Of a stretch of 64,000 nucleotides of DNA, positions 1 to 33,427 are shown piece after piece. The notes beneath the pieces are model-generated. The model was not told where the DNA came from and made no database searches. It saw only the letters and a list, made by a program, of their open reading frames with translations. This DNA comes from Balanoglossus misakiensis (Eukaryota > Animalia > Hemichordata). How positions within the stretch are numbered: position 1 is the first letter of the stretch; each line of letters begins with the position of its first letter. The DNA is taken from positions 5,131,319 to 5,195,318 of the forward strand of contig CM082594.2 in NCBI GenBank assembly GCA_040954595.2, given 5' to 3'. Position numbers and translations under genes: made by a program.

Positions 1-815
1 ATCAAGCCGATGTGTGGATGCTTTCATGTCGCAACACTCGAGTGGCAATATTCCAAAATACCACAGCTGCTAAGTAGCACAGACACTGTGATAAACAACA
101 AATTTACACGTTGTAAATTAACCCAGTTGTCTGACATTGGAGTCCTAATAACCCACTAAACCAACTCGAAAAGAAACTGAACAATCCCGAAAGATTAAAA
201 ACAATTCATTGATTCTAGAAATTTTGTAGGTCACAAACTGAAAGTGCATCGATGTTGTTTGCGACCACAGGCTGGCTTGGAGCCAGACCATGAAGAATGA
301 GGCACTCTGGTGTACAATGACATGGTGTTACGTTTGTCTGGCCCATTGCCAAGATCACGAAAAACCAGCACACGACATCAACAATAACATGGAGGTCAAC
401 TGGTGTCAAACTCATGTCAAGACCCTGCCAAGGTCATTCTTTTATAGTCCACATTCCCCTTTAACAGTCACTGATCAGTAGAATCTCACAGAGGGTCTTT
501 AAAATCGCAACATGTTTCATCGAGTGTCAACATCCAATATGTCAATAATTCATACTATTAATTCAGTACATGTGACATGGGACAGATGATACACTGTACC
601 TATATGTATGCATTAAATAAACCATTAGTTATGTTGGAAAGCCTTCGTCCAAGCTTAATTTTCACTTTTTATGACAATATTCTATCGTTTTTCAACTTCC
701 AGTACAGAATATGGGTGTAATACACAACTGAAGGTCGTACAGACAAATGTATTGATCTGTACAAATCAATTAAGTAGCACAAGGTGATATTACAATCTAC
801 TCTTACAATACTTAC

Positions 816-3800
816 ATGTGTCCTTTCGCCCGCTTTACTCCAGAAGGTCACTTTGACCTTCTGTTTCTTGCCAGTCCTCTGATCAAAGCATTCGCACATG
901 TCGAACGGTGGCGAGTACAAGTGGAGGCTGACACCTGGGTTGACGTGGCTGATATTTTCAACCCGGTGAAGACCATCAGCGTCTGCAAGAGAAATGGAGG
1001 CTTAAATTATAGCAGAGAGACAATTGGCAAGAAATTGTGTCGGGTTATTAACGTTGTCAACCATCTGACAGGCAATTTGCTCATTAATGTGTGTTTCTAG
1101 TTCAGAAACATTACATGTACAATATATAGCTGGTCACATGCTCAGACAGTTTTGACCAAGCACCAGATATTATCTACATCACTGCTTTTAAAGGTACCAG
1201 ACTGATGCCAAGAAATTCCTGGAAACTGACTCAGATCTTTTATCTGAAAAACTGACAAGTTTGGCACCAGATGCCAAAACTGTTAAAACAACACCAGTTA
1301 ATTTGCTGCACATCATGCATTCAATATATCAATGCATACCGCAGATGTAGGCAACTTCATCCCGGTGGTATCTGTTTTTGGCTTTTTCTGTCATCTCGTG
1401 TTCCGGTTCGGATTCGCTCGGCCAGGCATACATAGTCTCTTGCAGTTCCCCATCCAGGATTTTCATGAAACAGTGTGCGTCTGAGTGACTATGAATACCA
1501 CTGTGTATAAAGGCCAAAAAAACAGAAACGCGTGTATTATTGTATATATAGAATTAATTATATGTACATACAGAATTAACAATAAGTCCAAAAAATGTAT
1601 TATTGTATATATAGAAATAATTATACATGTATCTCTGTGTACTGTACACTCTCAAACCAGCTTCTTTCAAATAATAAATCAATTAAGTTATTTTGTACTT
1701 TGACGCACGCACATCTGTCCAGGTGCTTGTGTTTTAAATGCTGCTGAAATTTCCTGATCGTCAGTAAAAAGTAATGTACTGAGAAGTGATACATTATATT
1801 ATAAAAACTCGGAGAGAACGAAAACATGGAAACTAATCCTGGTCATTCAAATCCATACACAAGACTTGAAAAAAAAAAATAATTAAAAAAATTATTTGCT
1901 GTACCTTCCTTGGCCTTCTCCCCAACAGAGGACGATTAAATTAAACTTTCCGTTTCCTTCATCCACTAAATTTCTTGTGTACCTGAAAGATAAAAAAAAA
2001 TTTTGTTTTCATTATTCTTTTTTTGAAGAGGGGTTGAAAAACTATATATACCCAAGAACACTAAACAAAAAATTGTGGGATGAATATACTGATACATACA
2101 TGTATATTTAACTGTTTACTCTATTGTGGTCATCATTACAAATTAACACATGGAATTGCTGACGAAGCAAAAAAGAGATTATCGCGATAGCACGACTGAC
2201 GTCTACTGAAGCGCCAAAGCCAACAAGATGATCAATCAAGCCACCATTATCAGCATACGTGTGGTATCTGCAATTGGGTGTAACCGTGTTGACAGTTTTT
2301 ATTTGAGAACAGACGACATTAACCTATCACACAGTCAGCACAGAAGAGTCGATTGAATGGAACAATTACAAGTACATGTACATGGGTTGAACTGTCATGT
2401 ATATACATGTACAAACTTTCATTAACAGCAGACAGATGCTAATATTTGAGGCAATGTCAAGGGATTGTACATGTTGGGAAAAGTTTGATACATGCTTTCA
2501 CATCTTTCAAAAGAAGTCGTGTATTTACACGTACTACATACATGGCGAAGTGGACAAATAATAATTTTATGAATTTATTACTTTGCAAACAATTATAAGT
2601 GCATTTCGGTGATAAGGGAACAAGTCTTAAGTGATAAAAGTCTATGTAAAACATGTACTATCAAAACAATATCTCATTTTTGATATTTAACTAGTGTCAA
2701 ATCATCTTATTATTTCCAATTTGTCAGATAATGTTCGCAAACACAGGATTTGTAACAGGGACATGGCAAGCCCTCACTGAGAAATAGTTTTGGGCCATCA
2801 CACTTGATTGTACATGTACATGTTTATGCAACTCAGAACTGGCATAAATTCCTACTCTCTATTGAGATAGAAATTAAAAATCGCTGACGTGAACAATGGT
2901 AAAGCTTTTCTAGCATTTTTAACATACCACAAGGGCTAACATGACAATTACTCAGCACTTTGCACACACAAACAATTATTCAACTTGGAGGAATGTACAG
3001 AACAGCAGAATAATGACTCGGGGACTGCCACGTTTTTTTGAGACCATCTGTGTATCAGAGTGCCCCCTCGTGCCAGATGTTCCACTCGCTCACTGTTGAC
3101 ACGAGACGATTATCCTTGTTAGAAATAGATACGTCTGACAACCAGAAATGTCCAGAAATTCTCCCGCTTTTAAAACTTTTACTTGTTAAATACACAGACA
3201 CTCAGTGCTGTATATGACCATGGCAATTAAAAGTGGGTGGTCTTATTTACAAATTCTTTCCTAGTTTTTTTGAAATATTGTTAATCACCTTTAATACCGA
3301 GATAAAACAATGCTGTGATGACCACTACAGTTACCTTGTCTTCCTAGGGGTCATGCCAGGACAGCACAAATTTAACTGTCTGTGATTGACAATGCCACAA
3401 AATCACATGCAGGTAAACACTGTACATGTGATCAGGTGGGATTTTGATAAATTAAAAATCTGAACCACGAACTTGCATTGTGGGCAAATGTTGTGAATGG
3501 GGTCGTGTCAAAGGCTAATGCCCAGCTCCGTTAATGTAGAAGACAACGTTACCCGACCCGCATGTCATTTCAACATGCACTACATTCAGGTACACCAGGC
3601 CAATGTTCACAAGTGCTGTGTAAATGTAAATGTACAGAAACCAGGGTGCCTGGCCTGTCTATCTAACAAGCATGAACTTTCGAATCAGGAGTATTTCTGT
3701 AAATCTTAAGTTCTTTTGCATCAGCAATGGGACCGTAAAATTAATATACAAAAATAATCATGGTTTCTATGGTTACAAGATGGAACATATTTCCCCATGA

Positions 3801-12059: not shown

Positions 12060-15000
12060 ATGGAGACCAATCAGTGCGAGAACGGACATTCGTATTCTGC
12101 TCATTACTTCGACGAAATCGGGTATCTGGACGACAAAACCGTCACTGCGTTCAATGTCGGCGGGGCGGGAATTCCGGAGCTGAGAAAGGCCGCGGAGATT
12201 ATGAAGACAGCGTCCAACGAAAGACTGGTGAGACGAAGTTTACAATGACTACATTTGGTGTTATGGTGTATCACTTGCAAACTATTCAAATGTGTCCCTT
12301 CTTTGCTAATAGAAGTCTTGACCTATTTCTGCTTATTGATGGCTTTGGTGGCCGGGAAGTTCATCTCTCAGGACATGTGGCGGAAAACCTAGTGCTATAT
12401 CCTTATATTGGGAACTTGTTCAAAATAAACTACAGTTTGATCAGAGAAACTGTATGCATTTTATATAACTTTAATACTCATGTTTTTATCAATGCAATCT
12501 GACGCGAGTGTCGACTAAAACTATAATGTTCTTCATGATCAAGTGATATGTCCTTATGTGAATTTTGACACTTCTATTTCGAACCTGTCTTATCGTATTT
12601 TCTATTACAGACGTACGAGTCCAGCAACGAGGCCAGCCTAATGCAATACGGGTTCACCATGGGCGATTCCGACTTCCTCCACAACCTGGCCGAGTTCCTG
12701 TCGCTCGAGTACGTGGAGCCCGTTCACAGGTAAGCTGAAATAAATAGCGCCGATGGCACTGAAGCTACTGATCTGTGCGCGGAATTTTACAACAAGCAGT
12801 ATCTTCTTCCAGAAGATGTATAGCGCTATCATTGCTATGGTGACTTTGATGGGCAAATAAAACTATCGTCCATCCCCTATCTATACAGTTTTAAGTTTTT
12901 TTTTTCTCAAAACCATTTTCCATTGATGCTGATATGGGTGTAGCTACAGACAGTAGTTCGACAGACAGACAGACAGACAGACAGACCACCAACTTTCAAT
13001 GACTGTGTCGCTGAAACTTTTTGCTCCACTTCTTCCGACCACTGCAGTAATGATTTAATCGCCACATCCGGCGCTTCGCATGGGATTAGTACTCTAGGGT
13101 GTCTGGCGCTGCAAAGGGGCGACTTCGTCTTCTTGGCAGACGTCACATTCTTCGCAGCCATAGATATACTCGAGAAGGACCTCGGCATGTCACTGGTTAA
13201 AGGTAAGTTCGGGTCTTCGTAGACAGTCGCGCCGGCACGGGGCCAGTTTGCGTGAGGCATATTTCCTACTCTACAGTCACGATGGTTTTAATCGAACACT
13301 GCAAGACAGGTCGCGGACAGAAAGCAACCTTTCTCATCTTATTGAACTCGTCGGCACTGCACTCGAAGGTGTATGCGAACCACTGTAAGCGCATATGATA
13401 TCAAACCGACGTGAGAATGTAATAACAGGTTGCTATTTGCATTGCATTGTTTTTATTGTGTGAAATCCTTTTCTTTGGAACAGTGAGGCATTAATAAAAG
13501 TCCATTCACTTGCAGTTCCAATTGACGAAAACGGCATCGACGTGGACGCGCTGGACATCTTGCTCACTACCTATCGACCTCGTTCAAGGCGCCAAATATC
13601 GGAGGAGAAACCTTTCTGGGCAGCCGTGTATGTCATCCCGTGCTTCCAAAATCCGACAGGGAGAGTTCTCGGCGAAGGTTAGTATGTGTGTATGACGTCA
13701 TCGAAGCTGGTGATACTGATAAGACACATTCATCGGGGGGGGGGGGAGATTCTCATAGAAACGAAACCATCTTACAGTATCACCGCCAAAACTGTGTTTA
13801 CTGGAACACCAAAGGTCCGATATTGAGAAAACTGCTGTGACTGTTGTTATGCAACACTTCAGTCGCTTATTTGAGAGTAAGTACAGTCACACACCAGCAT
13901 CACACTGCAACAAAGAATTCTTATATTTTCCGCACTGGGCCAATTATTGGAATTGTGATGACGCGTTCCATCTCCTGCTTTTGGGGGGATTGGCCAACAC
14001 AGAACATGGAAAGTCGCTATGTAAATACTAAGTAAATACTGCCTATTTACCAAAACACGCAAAAACACTTTGACATCACATGTATCTCTCTGTCTTACAG
14101 AACGCAGCCGAAAGCTCATCGAAGTTGCCAGAAAGCACGATGTCTTGGTTATCAGCGACGATGTGTACAATCTACTCTCTTACATGACACCGACAGATCG
14201 CGCCCTCAGCGATCGCGAGTTTGTCTGCCCGAAAAGACTGTTTGCTTACGACGACAAAAATGATTCCAACTACAAAGGAAACGTTGTCTCTGTTTGCTCC
14301 TTCTCCAAGATTTTTGCGCCCGGTCTTCGACTTGGGTGGTACGAACTTCCGCCTCGAGTGCACAGCATTGTCAGAGATAGGTAATTAGTTTCAATGGACC
14401 ATTTTGCGAATTCCACGAGAGGCTGTGAGTCTTGTAGTGGGTGGTGTGGTGTGGTGTGGTGTAGCGTATTGTGTCGCACCGACTCGTCTCATATAAGAAC
14501 ATTTAGTTGTTTGCCAGAGAAAGGTATACCCTCATTCTTAATTTACATATGCTCATTTGTGGTAAAAATGACGAGTCTAAGTCACCGAATGGTCGTTGGT
14601 GGCATTTTATTTTACATGTGATCATCCCACGAAAACAATGACTGATTTCAATAGACCATTTTCCGAGCTCAACGAGACGTTATGAGTCTTGTAGTGGGTG
14701 TTGCGTTGTGCTGTGATGTGGTGTGGTGTGGTGAGGTATGGTGTAGTGTGGTGTGGTGTGGTGTGGTGTCGCACCGACTCGTTTCATAACAGAAATTTAG
14801 CGTTGTTATTGGCCAGGGAAAGTGATACCTCCACGCTTAATTTGCATATGCCCATATGTGGTCAAAAGTGTGAGTCTAAGTCGTCGCATGGTCGTTGGTG
14901 GCAATTTTTTTTACACGTGATCACCCCACCCAAACAAGCGAAGGTATTGTGGTTATCAAAATGACAGGTATTGTCTCAGAGTTCTACAAAGAAAGCAAGT

Positions 15001-17549: not shown

Positions 17550-20500
17550 ATGTCGTCTTATCGTCGCTTAAGTGTCGCCGCTACGGTCTTGTTAATCAGT
17601 TTCGTGGTCGACACTGAGGCATTCTATGCCTTTCTGAGTAAGGCGAGAGACCCAGGAGGTGACTTTACACACAGAACCTTGTCCCACGAAGCCCTGCTGA
17701 AAGTAGTGGCCAGGTATCTTGAAGACAACCCTCGACCAGGAAGTTCCGTACAGCCTGGCGATTTAGTTGGACTCGATCCGTTGACGACGTCACGTCTGTT
17801 AACAGCTTACTATGGGGGTATGCTTTGCTTTCTTTTTTTCGACAAATCCACAATGCATAAGTTATATTGACTAAAATCTTTTAGACATATTATAAAGTGC
17901 GAAGGACTTCGCTACAGTGAAGTGAAAGTCCCATAACCATATTAGAAAGACAACACTGTGTGGCCATTGATGATGCCTTATACAAAAGGAAAGCGAAATA
18001 TTAAACTCGGGAATGATATTAGGATCCTGCCAAACGTTGAACTCGATAAAAAAAATAACTTCGTGAACAAATTAAGATTTGCATGCCGATAGCATTCCTT
18101 GTGTTAGTTGTGAACGTCAGCTTTTGAAAATGTCGTAAAGGGCGGAAAACTGGTCGATCATTTTCCGAACTCCACGAGATCCTGTAAGATCTCGCGTGGC
18201 TAGGCAGTTTATATGGGTCTGGGCAGTTTACTACACGCTCGATTGAGCAGTACCCTGGGCAAAGCTTGGGCGTCTCCCAAGCTTGTGTGAAGGGTGGTGA
18301 TAAAGGTTTAGCTAACCTTCAATTGTTTATACGCCTATCCTATCGACAGCCGCTTTTGGCTTATGCGCGCGATGTCCAGTGCTGCATGCATGTCCTCGGT
18401 CAGTATAAAGTTTGACATGCACAGAAGAAACAACACATAGCCCATCGTGTTATTAAAAAGCACAGAAATTACATTTTTTGCAAAACTCTGCATCTATTCT
18501 CGTTTCATACAAAGCTTGGCTTGTATTACATAGAAACGAATGCAGAGACGTGGATCTTAGCCCGATAGTAGCGTAATCAGTAACAAAAGCACGCTATCTG
18601 TGCAAGTGGGACACGTTCGCCCCAGATGTTAATCATATTACATGCATAAATCATTACTGCTCCCAACGCACGCTACGACAGAATTAATCATAACACCAGG
18701 CTTGCTATTGTAAACGTCAAATTATTTGCGAGTAAACAAAACACAAATCAAATGCCTTTGTAGTGCAGCTTCGATTGCACAGCAACACCTGTCAGCTAAT
18801 TGCCTATTTAACATTTCACCGATTTAATAAATGCCAATGTTCAAAGAGAGGGAAAAGACAGCATATACGTTGGTGAAAATTGACAAAAGGTTAGGCAAGT
18901 AACTTGCTTCTGGGTACTGTCATTCTTCGGTGTATGCCAAGGTCTGATTTTGGTTTTAAAAAACCCTAAGAACTGTAAAGTTGATGATCACAACACAACA
19001 CAACACAACACAACGCATCAAATAACATCGCATCGCGCCACATCGCATCATTAACATAAATGCATATGTATGCACTAATTATCCGTATGCTCATTTTCTT
19101 TGAAGATGGACAAGTTTCCGCTGTTCCCCTGGAAGAAGCTATACTAGAAATGATTGAAGGCAACATGAACGTCGATTTCTATGAATTCTCATCTCCGGAG
19201 CCGCATATGAATGCAGAAAAATTTAAAAAAGGTACGAAGTCAAAACAACAACCTGTTTCAGTTTTAATGTTATTTAACATTAGTACACATTTTGGAATAT
19301 TTCGCTCATTGCGACAACAGCAATGGCGGTATTTTCGAGTCTCAAACAACATATGCCTATCTGTAGCAAACGATATCAATTCAATATGATTTGACAATTT
19401 ACTAATTCTCCTCAACTGGGTAAACCTCTGAACAATCACAGCCAACCGCCGACTCCAAGACACCCGTGACGTCATCATCCAGCTCTTGCAGGAGTCACAG
19501 CCTGACTACTCTTCAGCCCGTTCTCTGATTGGAGAATATTTGCATATAGTTCAAGATTTCTATAGCAACGCAAACTGGGTGGAAATGAAAGGACCAGTAG
19601 CTTATGAAGACTTGGGTAATTAAGACTTCGAAATATTTTAGTAACCAACGGAATACTAAGTTTATGCAAATGGGTAGTTCGTCAGTGGTCAAAATGAACA
19701 GAAAAGTGAGATATCAGTATTTCCATTTTAAAAAGCTTAATCTAAAGATTAATACATTTTCTTCATGATTATCACGAACTTAGGAGGCTTTCCTGTTGCC
19801 GAAGCGAAAATAAATTTCTTTCAATTTCTTCTCATAACATTTGAGATAAATGTGATAACGATAAATAAAAATAGTCTGACATTTCAACAAACACAACGAT
19901 TTCTACCTATTATGGAGGTGTCAACGAGATTAATATCGATTTTGTGACAATTGTGTTATATGGGTAGGCTTATCGGGAGTCAGCATTCTTCCAGTTGCCA
20001 AGAGCAGTGAATACACGTGTAAGGGTTGTGACGACAGGTAAGATCACACTCTATACGTCAGGAATTGTTTTAGGGCTGTTCTGGTCCAGCTTTGACGGGA
20101 TGGAATAGGTATTGAATGGATAATCGCATACGCACGTGCAGAAAAAAAATATCAAGTGCGCAATGCAAATATATAAGTCATACTACGACAACGAAGATAA
20201 CTTGTGTTGGGGCAAGGATCAACAGCAATCAGTTATTTGACACTAATCCCACTTTTAACTCTAGGCTCTATAAATCCCATTTCTCACATTTCAGAATCGT
20301 TACGGCAGAACAGACCCCAATTTCCTTCTCAATTTGAAACGAAACTAATCCAAAATCACCACAAGTCAAATATGAGAGAAAAGACTTTAGACATTGATTC
20401 TCGAGAAGCATACTACGTTTCTATGTTACATACTACGTTACCAAAGAATTTTCACCCACAAACACCCCAACACACATACATCATGTTCATTTTATGACAG

Positions 20501-21783
20501 TAAACCTGGTGACTGCGATAATAATCTGATTGTCGGAGGAGATACGCTTACAAGTGGATATAGATCAGGGCAGGGGACCAAGAAACGAACAGGTATGTTT
20601 ACTCTCTACACACTACAGAGCAAAAGAAAACAAGAAGGCAATTCTATAACATTTTCTTGGTTAAGGTACACAGTCACCTCCAATTTACATACGCACATAT
20701 ATGGCTGAATTGGCGCATTTGAGGGTTCTAAAGAACATATGGTGGCGCCACCCACTGGAAATCCGTGATTGGCTAGATCTGTAGCTAAATTTTCTTAGGT
20801 GACCGTGGGTATTGGCTGTGTAGCAGTCCACTGTGTTTTTTTCAATCCGCATCGAAATCATGTATCGATACGAGCATGTTAATATTTGTAGCGCACACTT
20901 ATGTTTACGTGTACATCGACAGGTAAGAGTGGCGAGGGAAAGTGCTCACACGGTGGTTCTTACGACAGTACGAGGAAAGACGCGGCAACAGGCGGGATCA
21001 ACAAGGAATCACGTGACCCGACCCTGTCTCCTCATTATTCAATGCATCAGGATGCGGCCACGTCTGCCATGCTAGCCACTGAAAACTTTTTTTTAGCGTC
21101 TGGTAAGAATAAGTTCACAAAAGTCATTTCTTGCCGTGTACCAAAGCAAGGAGTATTACTTTTAACGTTACAGCAGCTTTTGACATTGCAATCTAACCAC
21201 ATCGGGCAAATAAAAGTTATTAGAGGTCACAACGGGTCAGAGGTGACGTCACCGCCTATATTAGGTACGAATGGTCAGAATAGGCCAGACCAAATAAAGC
21301 AAAATTATCTATAATAACTTTCTTAGTTGATGAGAATTCTTTCGACCAAAATATACACGGTGCAGCCAGATATATTTGAAATTCAAAGAGGATAGATATT
21401 ATATTATATACTCCTAGAAGGAAATGACCTGTGTAACATGATAACACAAATGATCGGGTAACTCTTGCTATCAGCTTATTATAAATCCATTTTTACCAAA
21501 GGGGCGGCATGCGAGTACGAGTGCGGAAGATGGGATTGCTTGATTCGGAAAGATTTCATTCTAAATCGAGAAGGTGGGATCAAAACCGACGGGTACGTAC
21601 CGAAAAACAGCACTGGTTACCCCCTTGGTCAAAGTGGCGTCACTATTGGCAGCGGAGTTGATCTTGGAAGCAAGACAAGGCAATATTTCATTGATCTCGG
21701 TGTTCCCTCAGGAGTCATTGCAAAGTTAGAGCCTTACTTTGGTCTGAAGGTAAGACTTCGACTTGCAACCCACGTCTACCACC

Positions 21784-21824
<41 letters not shown>

Positions 21825-24800
21825 ACGTACGTACGTACGTACGTACGTACGTACGTACGTACGTATGTATGTACGTATGTATGTATGTATGTATGTATGT
21901 ATGTATGTATGTATGTATGTATGTATGTATGTATGTATGTATGTATGTATGTATGTATGTATGTATGTATGTATGTATGTATGTATGTATGTATGTATGT
22001 ATGTATGTATGTATGTATGTATGTATGTATGTATGTATGTATGTATGTATGTATGTATGTATGTTATAAATATAATCATTGGAAAGGGTGGTTATCCATG
22101 GTTATTCCCATTACAACATATTCTAGGTATAGTCTTTGTATTTCCTTGTCTCAACGCAGAAACACGCGGCGGTAGACAAGCTCCTAGAAACACCATTGAC
22201 TCTGACATATTCTGAAGCCGAAGACCTCAGTTACCGGGTAATGGACAAGGAAATCACAGACATTGCTGAATTATACGACTCTGCAGTAGACACTATAGGT
22301 AGAAAATATGGCAATCAAATTTCTGTTGGTACATTTTTCAATATAAAATGATATATTTACAGGGTTCTAAATGTCAGAGAAGATAACGTTATCTGAATCG
22401 TTGATGAAAAGTGTCCATGGATGTTAGAGTCACTCGTTTTTTCAATGATGTCAGTTTCATTTTTACCCATGAACAGTAGTACACACATGAGGGATTGTAC
22501 TGAAGAAAATATTAATGCCTGTTGGCGAGTTTTTGAGTTGGGTTGACGCATGCTCTATTGGGCATGTGTTTGTTTACACCGTATTGACAGGTGACGATAA
22601 TTTGGAGAAATTCGGGGGCCTCACGGTCGCACAGAGGACTGTCATTGCGTCCGTGTACTTCCAATATGGCGGACCACCGACAACCAAGTTTCCAACGTTT
22701 TGGGGCCATGTGACAAACCAGCGATGGGAAGCAGCTATTTCTGAGCTCAGAGATTTTAAAGATAGCTACCCGACCCGCAGGAATAAAGAAGCGGACCTAC
22801 TTCAGCAAGACTCTAAAGATAAAACCTTTTGCCCAGGTATGACTGAACGTGGTTAGACGTCATCGAAAACATTCTTTTGATTGACAACGTCGCAACCATG
22901 ACGCCAGTGCAGAACAGGGAAATTTCTGGAAGATTTCTTAGTTAGCAGCACGCATCTGCATTTAGGTAGTATCGTGGGGAAGTATGCGCCTTGGGGACAT
23001 ATATTCAGATAAAAATGATATTTATCAAAACTTTCAAATTCAGAATAATCTAAATATGCAGTATTAGCAAACTATGAAGCTTTGAAACCAAAAAGTCATT
23101 CTGTTACACACCATTTAATACCACAAAAGAAAAAAGCCTTTAGGGATTAAAAAAACAAACTAGAGTCTACCTGGACTTTAAGAATATGAATAATTCTCAT
23201 TAATTGAATAGTGATTAAACAAAGGTTCGCTAATGTGAAAATAACCATAGACGTAAATTATAAGCACTCCATTTGTTTTTGTTTTTCTCGTTACGTAAAC
23301 AGACCCCAATCATAAAGAATATGGCCTCAAATTTCACATCAGCGATGGAGCCTTTCTGGGACTGTTCAACCTTGGACAAAACAGTTCCAAGTCCCTCAGC
23401 ATCGCCATGGACGTCACCGGAAGTATGTCTGACGATATACAGGCGGCCAAAGAGGAATGCCATCGATTGATCGATGAGCTCGCTGGCACAGTGAATGAAC
23501 CGGCCAATTACGTACTGGTACCTTTTAGTGACCCGGGTAAGTCCGACCGTCATGTTTAATTTTCAGCTTTGACAAGGTGATGGGGTGGTGGACGTGGTGG
23601 TGGTGATAATCTCATGGCAATTTTGTAATTCGTATCGCGAATGGAGACCATTTAGCATTCTGTTCACACCACCCCCTTTTATTTCACGATTGAGAAGCAC
23701 GCCTTAAATGTTGATGTCAACTTATTTTGGTTTATGTATGTACGAAACAGTTTCAATTGCTGGCAAAATATTGTACATGTAGTTCTCCAATATACAACAT
23801 TTCGATGTCTTATCTGGATTCAAGGGATGTTGCTAACACAAAATCATATGATCCTCATGACAGACTATGGTCCAGTGTTTGTTACCACAGATCCGGATGC
23901 TTTCAAAGTCGCCCTCAGTGCTTTACATGCCAGTGGTGGCGGAGATTGTCCAGAACTGTCGATGACTGGGACCGAGTTAGCGGTAGAACACAGGTATGTG
24001 CTCCTAAAAATGAATGAATGAATGAATGAATGATGCATGTATGCATGCATGCATGGATGTATGCACGCGTGCGTGCGCGCGCGCTTGTGTGTGTGTATGT
24101 ATGTATGTATGTATGTATGTATGTATGTATGTATGTATGTATGTATGTATGTATGTATGTATGTATGTATGTATGTATGTATGTATGTATGTATGTATGT
24201 ATGTATGTATGTATGTATGTATGTATGTATGTATGTATGTATGTATGTATGTATGTATGTATGTATGTATGTATGTATGTATGTATGTATGTATGTATGT
24301 ATGTATGTATGTATGTATGTATGTTTTTGTTTGTATGTCTGTCGACTGCAAAAACCTATTTTCTAGTTTATCTCAATTATTTTACAGTCTGCCTGGTTCA
24401 GATCTGTTCGTGTTTACCGATGCAAGTGCCAAAGACACCGACAAAACGGAATACGTTCATGATTTCGCCCTGGAACGAAATGTGCAGGTTTCTTATCTGC
24501 TGACCGGGACTTGCGGGTATGCTCGCCGATCAGTTGGGTCAATGGCTCGTGGTCAGTCTCAAGGTAGGGTGTTATTGCTCCACGGAATTCAGCACAAAGC
24601 GTGCGTGCATGGTTTCATAATAAAGAAAAAAATGTATTCCTTCTGGGGAAATTCAAATAAGTACAAAGCGACTCTGTTCACCTGAAGATGCAATCGCGAA
24701 TTCCAAGCAAAGTTTGAAAAAAAAATTAAAGTATTAAGTGTCGGTGGATGGGAACGGTGGATGGCAACTCCCAGAGAGAGTTCCATGCCTTGGCCGTAAC

Positions 24801-27800
24801 CCTTGTGATCTGCTTCATGCTCTCCCATTCAGCAAATCACGTGCCCAGCCCGAGAGAGCACTCTCGAAGGAAGCGCAGTTTAGACGCTTATCGGTCAATT
24901 TCCGAGGCGACCGGTGGAGTTGTGCTTGAAGTGACCAAAGAGGAGTTGAAAGGAGCGACGGAGATCATCAGCCGCAGCTTTGAAGGAGCCGAAGTCTCCA
25001 TTCTCATCGTCGATTTGACCGGGAATGGCACAGTGACATTTCCGGTGGATAACACAGTTTCTCAGATTGAGATTACTGTGGCGGCATCAGACACATTTCC
25101 CGATAGGATTGACTTTGCTGTCACAGACCAAAACGGTAATAATAACATTTTTATAGATCAGTAAGAGGAAATGCACAAACGTACGGGAGCTTGACCCGAA
25201 GGCCAGAACATCCTCTAAAAGAGTGGCTACGTGTGTGTTTATTTATATCACTTGAACGGTTTTTCGCATTATTTGACATTGCTTGACAATATTAATGTTG
25301 CTGTGATTCTGATACGATTTAAGTAAAATATGGAATTCATCTCCTACCGGATCGATAAAAAATGTCTGCACATTGTTGTGTAATCATTTATCAACACAGT
25401 AGAATTGCATAAAAATGCTACCCATGGGCCTTTAATACATAGTATTTTGGATTCCCGATCGCGAAATTCAATATAGATCATTCGTCAATTTTCATACTCT
25501 AGGTCTCCTTTGGAATGATACTAAAGAAATAGTTAATAAAAGAGGAGAACTTATCGTGGTCATAAACGCCACCGAACCAGGAGAATGGGGATTGACACTA
25601 AATGACAACGCACAGTGGCATATTGTCGTAAATGCAACAAGTCCCATAGATTTCTTGTACACTTTCTATAGTGAAGACGATGCTGGTCAGATGATACCCC
25701 TTTACGGCTCACCAGCATTAGGTAAGTTGTTAAGTACTTGCGAACAAAACCTGACACAAACATGTTATAACGCAATAGAAGAAAAATTATTCCTGATTGG
25801 AACAATAGTTTGGGATGTTTGTATGCACGCGACTTAGGGACGTACGTACATATGTCCATCCATCCATTTACTCACTCAATCATTCATTTAATATTTCGAG
25901 AATTTCTGTTCTACAGATCAAGAGGTTTCGCTAATCATATCCATAACTGGACAGGAGCATGTTTCTTCTGTGTCACAACTGATCTTCACCACCAACAACG
26001 GTACTGACTTGAAAACCATCGATGTGACTTTGATCAGTGTAGGATCGTACCTCGCCCAAACGCAGATACCGCGTGAGGTATGGCGTAAAATAAATACTAT
26101 AGACCAAAAGTTAATAACGTATCTTTGATGCGACATCAAGCTGGATTCTTTAAATAATTACTCCGATATACTAGTACCTAAATTTTGCTAGAAAAATCCA
26201 GTTTGAGAAGAAATGGGTAAATTTGGATTACTGGGATAGCACGGGGGTTTCGTAGGTGTTTCCGGACGGTTAAATTGGAATTACTCGGTCACCTATGCAA
26301 ATTTAACTATTGTTACCAGGGAGAAGTTATGATCTAGACAATCACAGGTTATCAGCCAGAGGGGGGGGGGGGGGGGTGGCAAGCGAAAAAAATGCGCCAC
26401 CGAACGGTCATTCGATGACTTCGGTATACATGTACTAAATTAAGGATGATTGTATAATGTTTAATCACAATGTCTTTCCTCAAAGGACTTCGGTATTCAA
26501 CTGAATGGACTGGACAGCAAATCAGTAGAATTCCAACGAAGGAAGTCAGTCGATGTTAAAGTTCAATCTATGAGCGTGGTAATACAGAATGGCGTAAGAC
26601 GTAAGTTTAAGTTTGCCTTTCGATTACTATAATAGATAATTTTCCGTTCATCGCGAGATCTCGCGAGACTTGGTTAATAATCTTATCAAAGGGGTTAAGT
26701 CATTCAAGTCAGGATATGTATGAAACTTCATAATATAAAGTGCTGAGTTTAACTAAAATTGCAATTTTTGTGCCATTTAACACAATGGGCAATATGTCGT
26801 TTTTCCTGTGTCCCATATGAACATTTTTTTTTCATTTTTGATTGTTCTGGCAGATTCCCTTGACCCGGCTGGCATTCCCCTGCAGATTAATTTTACCATA
26901 CGTAACCATGGAGACGAAACAGACAACTACACAGTCATGGCACAGGACGACTTGTTCGTAGAAGAATACTTTCCCTACAATATAGAGATACCCGCAAAAT
27001 CTACCTTTGATGGCTACATCATAGCTGCTGCTGCAGACAATGAGACTGAAAGTGGCTTAATCAGGTAGGCGATGTCTGATTTTTTTTTGTGGTTAGTCAT
27101 GATAGTTTTAGCCTTGGCCCAGTTTTGTAGATGAATATAAAAGGCTATCGTTTTTTGCGATAATTTGTCCCTGATATGAAGTTTACATCTAAATGCCATG
27201 ATAACTATACGGTTTAAAACTTTGCATGTACTTTATCTCCAGTGCGGGATCGTTGAAAGTTACTAGTGATGGTAGTGGGACATCCAATGAGGTGCAATTC
27301 AAGTTGGTTGTCATGGACTACCTGGAATATTACCGAGAGATAGATGACGAAGTCGAAGACCCGACAGTAAGTGATTATGATGTTTCAGAGATATATTCTT
27401 GAGAGCAGGAGAGAAAACCATGTTTCAAACAGTGTTCTTGGGAGTCATGCTTACTGTAATATAGTAGTAGATGGGACTGCATACTGTGATACGTTTGGTC
27501 GAAATCTATCAATACATGCGTAAACAGTGGTCAGCTGATCAGCTTCATCTAAGACGAAGTGCAGAATCAAAGCAGAAGATTTCACAGCAAATTTACAACA
27601 GCTTAACTTTTCAAATATGTCTTTCAAGTTCAAAGGGTTTCACATGCGGCTGTTGTTTGTTTCGTCACCACAGGATACACCTGTCGCCGATGGGGGCGCA
27701 TTCCACTGGAGCACTATCGTAATGATAGCAGCTGTGTCAGTGATGGTGCCGGTGACTGGCGTCGCGGTTGCCTTATGTTGTGTGAGGAAGAAAAGGTACC

Positions 27801-27805
27801 ACTGA
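17550..27805 (+). CDS. VWA7: VWA7-like type I membrane protein (~1115 aa): signal peptide, Het-C/Zn-PLC-like N domain, inserted pesticin-like muramidase, VWA (MIDAS), beta-sandwich region, TM helix, short basic tail
   Basis: 19 GT-AG exons: 17550-17817, 19106-19231, 19442-19615, 19968-20037, 20501-20592, 20923-21102, 21502-21749, 22160-22298, 22591-22836, 23303-23536, 23864-23993, 24388-24563, 24833-25135, 25503-25721, 25917-26077, 26486-26600, 26854-27064, 27243-27366, 27674-27805 (3348 nt, open). VWA7 hallmarks: LHIVQDFYSNANWVE, LTSGY, GKCSHGGSYD, GGINKES...SPHY, MDVTGSM, YVLVPFSDP, GGGDCPELS, FVFTDASAKD, EATGG. The symbol means VWA7-like, not a proven orthologue. Confidence 0.88.
21502..22836 (+). 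CDS. Pesticin C-terminal-like (T4-lysozyme/GH24-fold) muramidase module, exons 7-9 of the VWA7-like gene (211 codons)
   Basis: DFILNREGG...GYVP...GQSGVTIGSGVDLG...KLEPYFGLK...PLTLT..EA...QRTVIASVYFQYG...PTFW...WEAAISELRDFKDSYPTRRNKEADLL. The Glu, Thr and Asp positions match the pesticin catalytic arrangement (T to D = 6 residues). Confidence 0.85.
21785..22063. repeat. Compound microsatellite (TGTC)n-(TACG)n-(TATG)n in the intron inside the muramidase module
   Basis: Directly visible tetranucleotide runs. Confidence 0.97.
24011..24324. repeat. Compound microsatellite (TGAA)n / (TGCA)n / (TATG)n in VWA7-like intron 11
   Basis: Directly visible; long (GTAT)n run ~24095-24324. Confidence 0.97.
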
Positions 27806-32200: not shown

Positions 32201-33427
32201 CCATTTGTCCATCCTTCTTTGTACCTCTGGAGATAGAAGAGTTCATCTATGGCTGCTTCTCCAGTTTCTAATCAAGAAAATAAAATAAAAATGTTAGTTT
32301 TCTTTCCCTACTTCCCATCTTCATTAGGATACATATACTCTACTTATGACGTAACTTACAAACACATGCAAAAACAATAATAAACCTAATTTGAAATAAA
32401 GATCATTTTCACTCAAACTAAGCAGATTTTGTGTAAGGTCTATGTCAACTGAAAATGTTATTTCCTTCTTATGATATTTTTTAACCTTACCTTTTATGAA
32501 ATCCTCAAATTCAATGACTGGCACATGTTTGCTCATGCTGCCCAAGTCAAAAAACATCGACCAGGGCAGTTTCATTTGATCAAGGTGGTACGACTGCCAG
32601 TGGTATATTCGACCCCAAGGAGGTAGGACCAAAATCCATTCTTCGGTCTGTCGAAGTTTTTTGACCAGATTAGAAACCCTCATGTAGACATCTCTCCTCA
32701 AATTGAACCCTTCACCAGGGTTGACATCATATAACAAGAACCTACAGGAAAATAGAAAGAGATCTGGATTCACAAAACATGTCTTTGGCAGCACAAGTAC
32801 ATGTACATTTCAAACACACTTGGTTTGTTAGATAACAGACATTTTTGCTTGTGGAATGTTAGAGGGTTAGACATTAATCCCACTTTGCCACCAATTTCTT
32901 GGCCTTTTCAGAGAGAAAAATCAGGAAGACTGTCTCCGCGAATGAAGCTCTGCGGGCAGACTGTTTCGATCCAGTCTTGTGTACTGGTGGTGAAAAGTAA
33001 AAGTTAAAAACTTCATCTGTTCACCCTCACAGATCACACTGTATTGAGAAGTGAGGGTGTGGCTACAGGCACATTTACTAAGATTCAATTGTTATGTTGT
33101 TCCAATAACAATTCGTTGTGTGACCAATTTGTTGTATGACCGACGTTACAGGGACTATGAGGACAAACGCCCAATGGTTATGAATGAATGACGTAAGCTA
33201 TCGTAACGAGTCGAAACTGTAGTCCCGGACTGTAGTACATCTCTATCAATATACTCCACGGCCTAAACTTACCTTCTCGGTTTCGCCACACCAACGTTAA
33301 GAGTCTGTTGAGTTCCCGGTTGAAATTCTAACACTTGACCGGGCTCATGAGCAGTTGCGTGCAATATTGCGCTCACAAACGCCAAATATAAGACGAGAAT
33401 CGGACCTTCGCGTGAAAGGGAAGCCAT
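29256..33427 (-). CDS. POFUT2: GDP-fucose protein O-fucosyltransferase 2, ~441 aa
   Basis: 8 exons: 33427-33273, 32741-32491, 32267-32015, 31591-31525, 31210-31085, 30866-30686, 29835-29703, 29415-29256 (1326 nt). Motifs: [110 protein letters not shown]. Confidence 0.97.
29868..29962. mobile_element. ~90 bp MITE-like element with (T)TAACCC...GGGTTAA-like ends; related copies at ~56014-56106, ~58463-58554 (inverted) and a degenerate one at ~28965-29045
   Basis: Copies share TTCACCA..TAGTT..GTCCAAA...TTTTCTAT.GTAA.G.TGGACC and end in inverted CCC.TTCA/TGAA.GGG next to TTAA-like sequence (piggyBac-like ends). Confidence 0.6.

Follow-up and report, generated by a model that had tools for sequence, protein, structure and literature searches.

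A gene of the acorn worm Balanoglossus misakiensis encodes a bacterial-type cell wall hydrolase domain within a VWA7-like protein that is predicted to be anchored in the membrane. The gene occupies positions 17550-27805 on the plus strand of the window, i.e., the whole 64,000-nucleotide stretch analyzed here (GCA_040954595.2, contig CM082594.2, positions 5,131,319 to 5,195,318). Its exons 7-9 encode a pesticin-type domain which, judging from the modeled ortholog, has a T4-lysozyme-like fold with all five active-site residues kept. What we establish is the exon layout and the order of domains, the fold and active-site residues of the pesticin-type domain, an ortholog in Ptychodera flava, and a single hemichordate clade of such domains. 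We give a probability of about 0.6 to the reading that the protein is tethered and active and hydrolyzes peptidoglycan exposed in mucus or gut, which would serve defense as well as digestion.

The gene model built from the window has 19 exons, 18 of 18 introns with GT-AG borders, and a frame of 1115 amino acids (aa) without an internal stop. Exons 7 (21502..21749), 8 (22160..22298), and 9 (22591..22836) contribute parts 1, 2, and 3 of the muramidase, together aa 304-514, which amounts to 211 aa. Pfam was scanned exon by exon with 16 of the 19 exons submitted, and these three matched Pesticin (PF16754) singly with 60.6, 26.8, and 28.3 bits (E 2e-16, 6e-6, and 2e-6), where the Pfam cut-off is 25.8. 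As each exon passes the cut-off and as they tile the 156-position model in order (2-70, 72-112, and 117-156), a chance match is excluded. An earlier note on this DNA had assigned six motifs to these exons, and all six were found there, namely REGG at aa 326, GYVP at 334, SGVTIGSGVDLG at 348, YFGLK at 382, VIASVYFQYG at 450, and YPTRRNKEADLL at 492.

The introns on both flanks of exons 7-9 are in phase 1, the donors being those of exons 6 and 9, so that the three exons constitute a symmetric 1-1 cassette which can be skipped without loss of the frame. Donors of the four introns that flank or split the module rank in the 90.7-100th percentile of background GT, and the acceptors in the 63.3-99.4th percentile of background AG, the lowest being that of exon 10. 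GC content at third codon positions is 0.48 in the module versus 0.47 and 0.49 in the rest of the gene. Intron 7, within the muramidase domain, contains a TGTA microsatellite (21786..22064) of about 70 copies; in intron 11, another microsatellite block (24009-24342) consists of AATG followed by about 65 copies of TGTA. Around the cassette there were no transposon-like repeats except microsatellites, and a tblastn search of the 64-kb window gave no further module copies.

Glu327 (21570-21572), Pro337 (21600), Thr351 (21642), and Asp357 (21660) in exon 7 and Gln457 (22662) in exon 9 align with E178, P187, T201, D207, and Q301 of pesticin, and the catalytic Glu and Thr-x5-Asp proposed earlier are thus intact. 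Cys316 (21537) is also encoded by exon 7, and a TRR motif and Cys513 (22830) by exon 9. The module matches the pesticin activity domain both by sequence (E 6e-18 for the P. flava ortholog) and by profile (E 2e-34, with T4 lysozyme at 0.003), and the match is confined to pesticin residues about 173-351, with the translocation and receptor-binding domains not included. Fold comparisons used the AlphaFold model of this ortholog rather than the B. misakiensis protein; in its muramidase core, the predicted local distance difference test (pLDDT) is 94-98. The model aligned to pesticin with a VIA Z of 23.0 (root-mean-square deviation 2.5 over 190 residues) and to T4 lysozyme with a Z of 11.6, and fold searches returned a Foldseek E of 1.9e-11 and an Atlas TM of 0.83. 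This bears out the pesticin/T4-lysozyme-like identity suggested in the earlier note. Phage_lysozyme (PF00959) was matched neither by the exons at E<=1 nor by the ortholog at E<=0.1, NCBIfam matched none of seven proteins, and the PHROGs matches were two families of unknown function.

The module and pesticin (PF16754; PDB 4AQN; PMC3390615) share the fold, about 29% identity, the five active-site residues, and a TRR/RR motif. Unlike pesticin, the B. misakiensis module has no translocation or receptor-binding domain, is split by two introns, is flanked by two cysteines, is acidic (isoelectric point 5.1, net charge -6), and is embedded in a predicted animal membrane protein. In the available part of the pesticin study (PMC3390615), alanine at E178, T201, or D207 abolished pesticin killing and alanine at P187 or Q301 left 10% of it.

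The best database match is P. flava XP_070536580.1, an uncharacterized RefSeq protein with VWA7_N, Pesticin (134.8 bits), VWA_4, and a weak hemicentin-type domain. The alignment crosses both outer junctions of the module, with the module (74.2% identical) and VWA (73.9%) ahead of VWA7_N (68.5%) and the stalk (60.4%). The fusion is therefore not confined to one species, as the earlier note had allowed when it considered that the architecture might be widespread and already characterized; it does occur in P. flava, but the protein there is uncharacterized. Among the 303 proteins gathered, XP_070536580.1 is the only one to match the non-enzyme parts of the window protein. As the enzyme domain guided these searches and the longest listing comprised the best 150 of 2,801 matches, other VWA7-like fusions may exist beyond the matches listed.

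From its N terminus, the predicted protein consists of a signal peptide, VWA7_N, Pesticin (exons 7-9), VWA, beta domains, a transmembrane helix, and a 6-aa tail, which agrees with the proposed in-frame placement of the enzyme between the VWA7 N-terminal domain and VWA. The order VWA7_N then VWA_4 with a DxSxS-type motif is present, and VWA7_N, VWA_4, and a hemicentin-type beta domain occur in the usual order of VWA7 or hemicentin-N-terminal-like proteins (PF25107, PF25106, and PF23560). The B. misakiensis protein differs from these in the 211-aa enzyme placed after VWA7_N model position 217 of 230 and in the transmembrane anchor; to our knowledge, ordinary VWA7 has neither a muramidase insert nor such an anchor. 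Hydropathy predicts a type I membrane layout with a signal peptide, a single C-terminal transmembrane helix, and a basic stop, as had been proposed, and the helix is also seen in the ortholog.

Pesticin-type domains occur in at least five other hemichordate architectures besides the VWA7-like fusion. Saccoglossus XP_002740238.1 has three such domains and two WSC domains, P. flava XP_070538284.1 has two with a lipase and two WSC, and Glandiceps XP_077987947.1 has one with a lipase and two WSC; a muramidase, a lipase, and WSC in one secreted protein suggest that wall and membrane are attacked jointly, or else a digestive role. Glandiceps XP_077989182.1 is a secreted protein that combines a pesticin-type domain with DUF6973 and two PGRP-type amidase stretches, which echoes the bivalve PGRP-lysozyme fusion. 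Saccoglossus XP_077870017.1 consists of four tandem pesticin-type domains with a hydrophobic C-terminal tail, and XP_077870016.1 of the same genus is a partial relative. Such partner domains (PGRP amidase, lipase with WSC) indicate a link to bacteria and food.

All five residues are kept in 9 of 13 hemichordate domains, B. misakiensis included, the exceptions being the four repeats of XP_077870017.1, each of which has lost catalytic residues. XP_077870017.1 may thus be an anchored pseudoenzyme that binds peptidoglycan. One cysteine immediately precedes and another immediately follows the domain in 13 of 13 hemichordate domains and in 0 of 10 octocoral-type domains (3 more not parsed); among the other rows, the count is 4 of 141 (20 not parsed). 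Likely, the flanking cysteines of the hemichordate domains form a disulfide clamp. The four other proteins (rows P0084, P0085, P0134, and P0234) are non-animal pesticin-domain proteins that form no well-supported grouping with the hemichordate clade.

A second animal family was found in octocorals, its named members being from Paramuricea and Dendronephthya. It combines a signal peptide, a Cys-rich leader, a pesticin domain, and a classical VWA domain (PF00092), and it is expanded to several copies. A hydrophobic tail is present in 30 of 32 long members, and the five active-site residues are kept in 13 of 13 sampled. Six octocoral-type loci were inspected, of which three are one uninterrupted frame, one is nearly so, and two are broken by frame changes; the genes appear intronless.

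In total, 2,801 relatives were found at E<=0.001. From the top of these came 265 domains that each matched 150 profile positions or more, and 187 rows remained after removal of near-copies at 80% and of one duplicate model; the trees are unrooted, and most non-animal rows were classed by tree position and partner domains. A further pesticin-domain protein (P0066) has its pesticin domain at the C-terminal end, joined to a phage SU10-type portal domain. In FastTree with 187 rows, the 13 hemichordate rows and the 13 octocoral-type rows formed two separate clades, each with a support of 100, and about 160 rows fell outside both animal clades. An IQ-TREE mixture model of 44 rows, 30 of them hand-picked non-animal rows, placed both animal clades with a Serratia pesticin-like protein (98/93), and a 45-row IQ-TREE containing 32 random rows and the Serratia protein placed them with that protein and one more row (97/98). 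Across these unrooted trees, support for the hemichordate clade is 99-100, and it groups with bacterial pesticin-like rows in both IQ-TREE trees, not in FastTree. Long branches may pull the animal clades together.

These unrooted trees lend some support to the horizontal acquisition proposed in the earlier note, as the hemichordate copies constitute a single clade and about 160 rows lie outside both animal clades. We read the direction of transfer as bacteria to animals because diversity is far greater outside animals, not because of a root. A bacterial source is likely, probably near pesticin-like bacteriocins; plasmid pesticin-like muramidases are the best named non-animal matches of the ortholog (45%, 154-162 bits), and cultured phages reach at most 111 bits. 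A phage donor was demoted on account of these scores and the IQ-TREE groupings. Scans of bacterial genomes and viral contigs yielded 1 and 10 loci, respectively, which were kept out of the trees and are too few for a donor to be named. Intronization and exon shuffling of the domain, also part of the earlier proposal, are supported by its two introns and by the other hemichordate architectures.

Whether acorn worms and octocorals acquired the domain separately concerns its origin only. Both IQ-TREE samples unite the animal clades in one starred group (98/93; 97/98), and the approximately unbiased test did not reject monophyly of the two (p-AU 0.293), which would fit a single ancient gain before the cnidarian/bilaterian split or a transfer from animal to animal. 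However, one or two non-animal rows fall inside the united group in both trees, FastTree separates the clades, and the octocoral-type genes appear intronless with the cysteine pair in 0 of 10. The window domain also scores higher against non-animal rows (157 bits) than against octocoral ones (143 bits), and a single ancient gain requires many losses. We regard one gain or an animal-to-animal transfer as possible but less likely than not. Tentatively, and with some reserve, we propose that the killing domain of a pesticin-like bacteriocin was domesticated in acorn worms and, separately, in soft corals, and gave rise to an animal lysozyme family that has gone unrecognized. It may have become a disulfide-clamped, shuffleable exon cassette used in tethered, secreted (with PGRP or lipase), and dead wall-binding forms, and the combination of muramidase, VWA, and anchor may have been reached separately in the two groups.

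Contamination, against which the note had also argued, is ruled out by the introns, the microsatellite, animal neighbor genes, and the P. flava ortholog. The gene sits among host genes and has spliceosomal introns, and 3 of 10 other long frames scanned in the window match animal-type genes: a cysteine dioxygenase exon (669-1001, minus strand), a class I/II aminotransferase exon (14025-14384, plus strand), and a GDP-fucose protein O-fucosyltransferase exon (32324-32809, minus strand).

The remaining exons, all on the plus strand, make up the scaffold. Exon 1 (17550..17817) contains the start codon and, by hydropathy, the predicted signal peptide (aa 1-24, 17550-17621), and the VWA7-like N-terminal region begins in its frame and continues in that of exon 2 (19106..19231); neither exon alone gave a Pfam match, and both lie outside the P. 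flava model, which begins at B. misakiensis aa 180 and leaves out the first 179 aa. VWA7_N (Het-C-like) was matched by exon 3 (19442..19615; PF25107 E 5e-10, weak Het-C E 0.087), which has a second in-frame acceptor at 19460, and by exon 6 (20923..21102; E 1e-16, model 165-216 of 230), where the match ends. Exons 4 (19968..20037) and 5 (20501..20592) are assigned to this domain by frame and ortholog tblastn. In the Het-C-like N-terminal domain (19106-19615), aa 125 and aa 174 are Asn; we take these positions to be acidic and His metal ligands in the family, and the domain may have lost a metal site.

VWA_4 (PF25106) was matched by exons 10 (23303..23536; E 4e-13), 11 (23864..23993; E 3e-11), and 12 (24388..24563; E 2e-11), of which exon 10 encodes a linker helix, the VWA start, and the DxSxS-type motif DVTGS (23410-23424). 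Exon 13 (24833..25135) contains a furin-type site, RRKR (aa 706-709, 24865-24876), the VWA end, and the start of the hemicentin-type beta domain. Exons 14-18 (25503-25721, 25917-26077, 26486-26600, 26854-27064, and 27243-27366) encode the beta-rich stalk, which is 60% identical to the ortholog, and exon 19 (27674..27805) encodes the predicted transmembrane helix (aa 1085-1109, 27710-27784), the basic 6-aa tail, and the stop.

We picture the following course of events. A bacterial pesticin-like domain would have entered the hemichordate stem and then gained introns, and the module would have become a phase 1-1 cassette closed by two cysteines, whose likely disulfide clamp draws the ends together. 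Copies of the cassette would have been shuffled into several secreted or anchored proteins, one of them being inserted at the end of VWA7_N in a VWA7-like gene. In the present protein, the stalk would hold the enzyme off the membrane, in mucus, and the VWA domain would bind a partner or the matrix. As a tail of 6 aa is too short for signaling, the protein would be an ectoenzyme without signaling of its own. An acidic domain without an outer-membrane carrier makes exposed wall the likeliest substrate, i.e., that of Gram-positive, damaged, or ingested bacteria, and such a substrate would serve both defense and digestion of food bacteria.

In favor of a tethered, active hydrolase, the module is conserved as strongly as VWA and above the stalk, and the catalytic loss in the XP_077870017.1 repeats serves as an internal control for residue retention in B. 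misakiensis. Several observations weigh against it. The exon joins and the protein product are predicted from DNA, and the signal peptide is seen in the window only, given where the P. flava model starts; outside the module, the ortholog model has a pLDDT mostly below 50. An N-glycosylation sequon at Asn339, near the cleft in B. misakiensis, is absent from P. flava. FastTree with 187 rows did not recover a grouping with pesticin-like bacterial proteins, and its backbone is weak. The conserved furin-type site is located between the enzyme and the anchor. Pesticin itself has low activity and, in the available part of PMC3390615, did not hydrolyze spheroplasts, Micrococcus cells, or labeled walls in vitro. 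Intact residues need therefore not imply strong lysis, and an assay on Micrococcus could give a false negative; that the enzyme lyses bacteria is the weakest step of the earlier interpretation.

The domain could instead be a slow enzyme or a wall-binding module which holds bacteria or trims muropeptides for other receptors without lysing cells, as the low in vitro activity of pesticin, an isoelectric point of about 5, and the existence of a four-repeat, C-terminally hydrophobic family member without a complete active site would suggest. We consider this unlikely, since the five residues are kept in both B. misakiensis and P. flava but visibly lost in the non-catalytic paralog, and the tail cannot signal. 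Membrane tethering of the enzyme is likely. A shed lysozyme is unlikely; in this reading, furin cleavage at aa 706-709 would free VWA7_N, the muramidase, and most of VWA into mucus or gut fluid, and the anchor would serve for delivery only. RRKR is kept in P. flava within a poorly conserved loop, and XP_002740238.1, XP_070538284.1, XP_077987947.1, and XP_077989182.1 have signal peptides and no anchor. However, the VWA_4 match in P. flava (364-545) includes the site (521), so that the pieces would likely stay folded together. Very improbable, in our view, is an optional or false fusion, with exons 7-9 left out of most transcripts or being part of a nested gene, so that the gene would chiefly produce a standard VWA7-like protein with an anchor. 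Skipping is in frame and gives 904 aa, RefSeq models can err, and the joins come from DNA; yet the module has no visible start or stop of its own, its splice sites are good, an independent P. flava gene model makes identical joins, and its conservation equals that of VWA.

The closest precedent is that of co-opted phage lysozymes in bivalves. The available part of PMC5303276 describes GH24 lysozymes from a phage donor that gained introns, were duplicated, and were fused to host genes including PGRP, one of them being bacteriolytic. The borrowed wall hydrolase, introns, duplication, and host-gene fusion are common to both cases, but the present domain belongs to Pesticin rather than Phage_lysozyme, occurs in another phylum, and has bacterial rather than phage proteins as nearest named relatives, and none of the three fusions described in that part is a tethered insertion in a VWA7-like scaffold. 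Metazoan g-type (GH23) lysozymes are likewise attributed to transfer from bacteria and are used in digestion and defense (PMC12855814 and PMC11576321, in part), yet represent another family, and the word "pesticin" is absent from the available texts of both. PMC11576321 does mention, without specifying them, non-conventional lysozymes in Saccoglossus; these could be pesticin-type proteins or something else. The available passages of PMC12419801 describe another bacterial-type toxin-like family transferred to Saccoglossus. The same word is absent from the passages of PMC7379824, PMC12419801, and PMC11470021 at hand, and two supplementary files of PMC4729200 gave no matches for lysozyme, pesticin, muramidase, or peptidoglycan.

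The literature search found no pesticin-type domain in animals, although subscription papers or unsearched supplements could mention one, and no papers pairing pesticin with a hemichordate. The muramidase-VWA7 architecture is visible in public domain annotation. The borrowing of lysozymes, with intron gain and fusion, is thus a known process; we found no earlier description of this enzyme family, of its presence in these lineages, or of the tethered design.

The usual inventory of animal lysozymes comprises the c-, g-, and i-types and a small number of borrowed enzymes. To these, the present gene and its relatives add a pesticin-type family from hemichordates and octocorals, two groups in which wall-degrading enzymes are poorly documented. 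A peptidoglycan hydrolase anchored at the cell surface would be an unusual design, and the family would represent a borrowed bacterial weapon that was rebuilt, as introns were gained and exons shuffled, into forms that are tethered, secreted, or dead.

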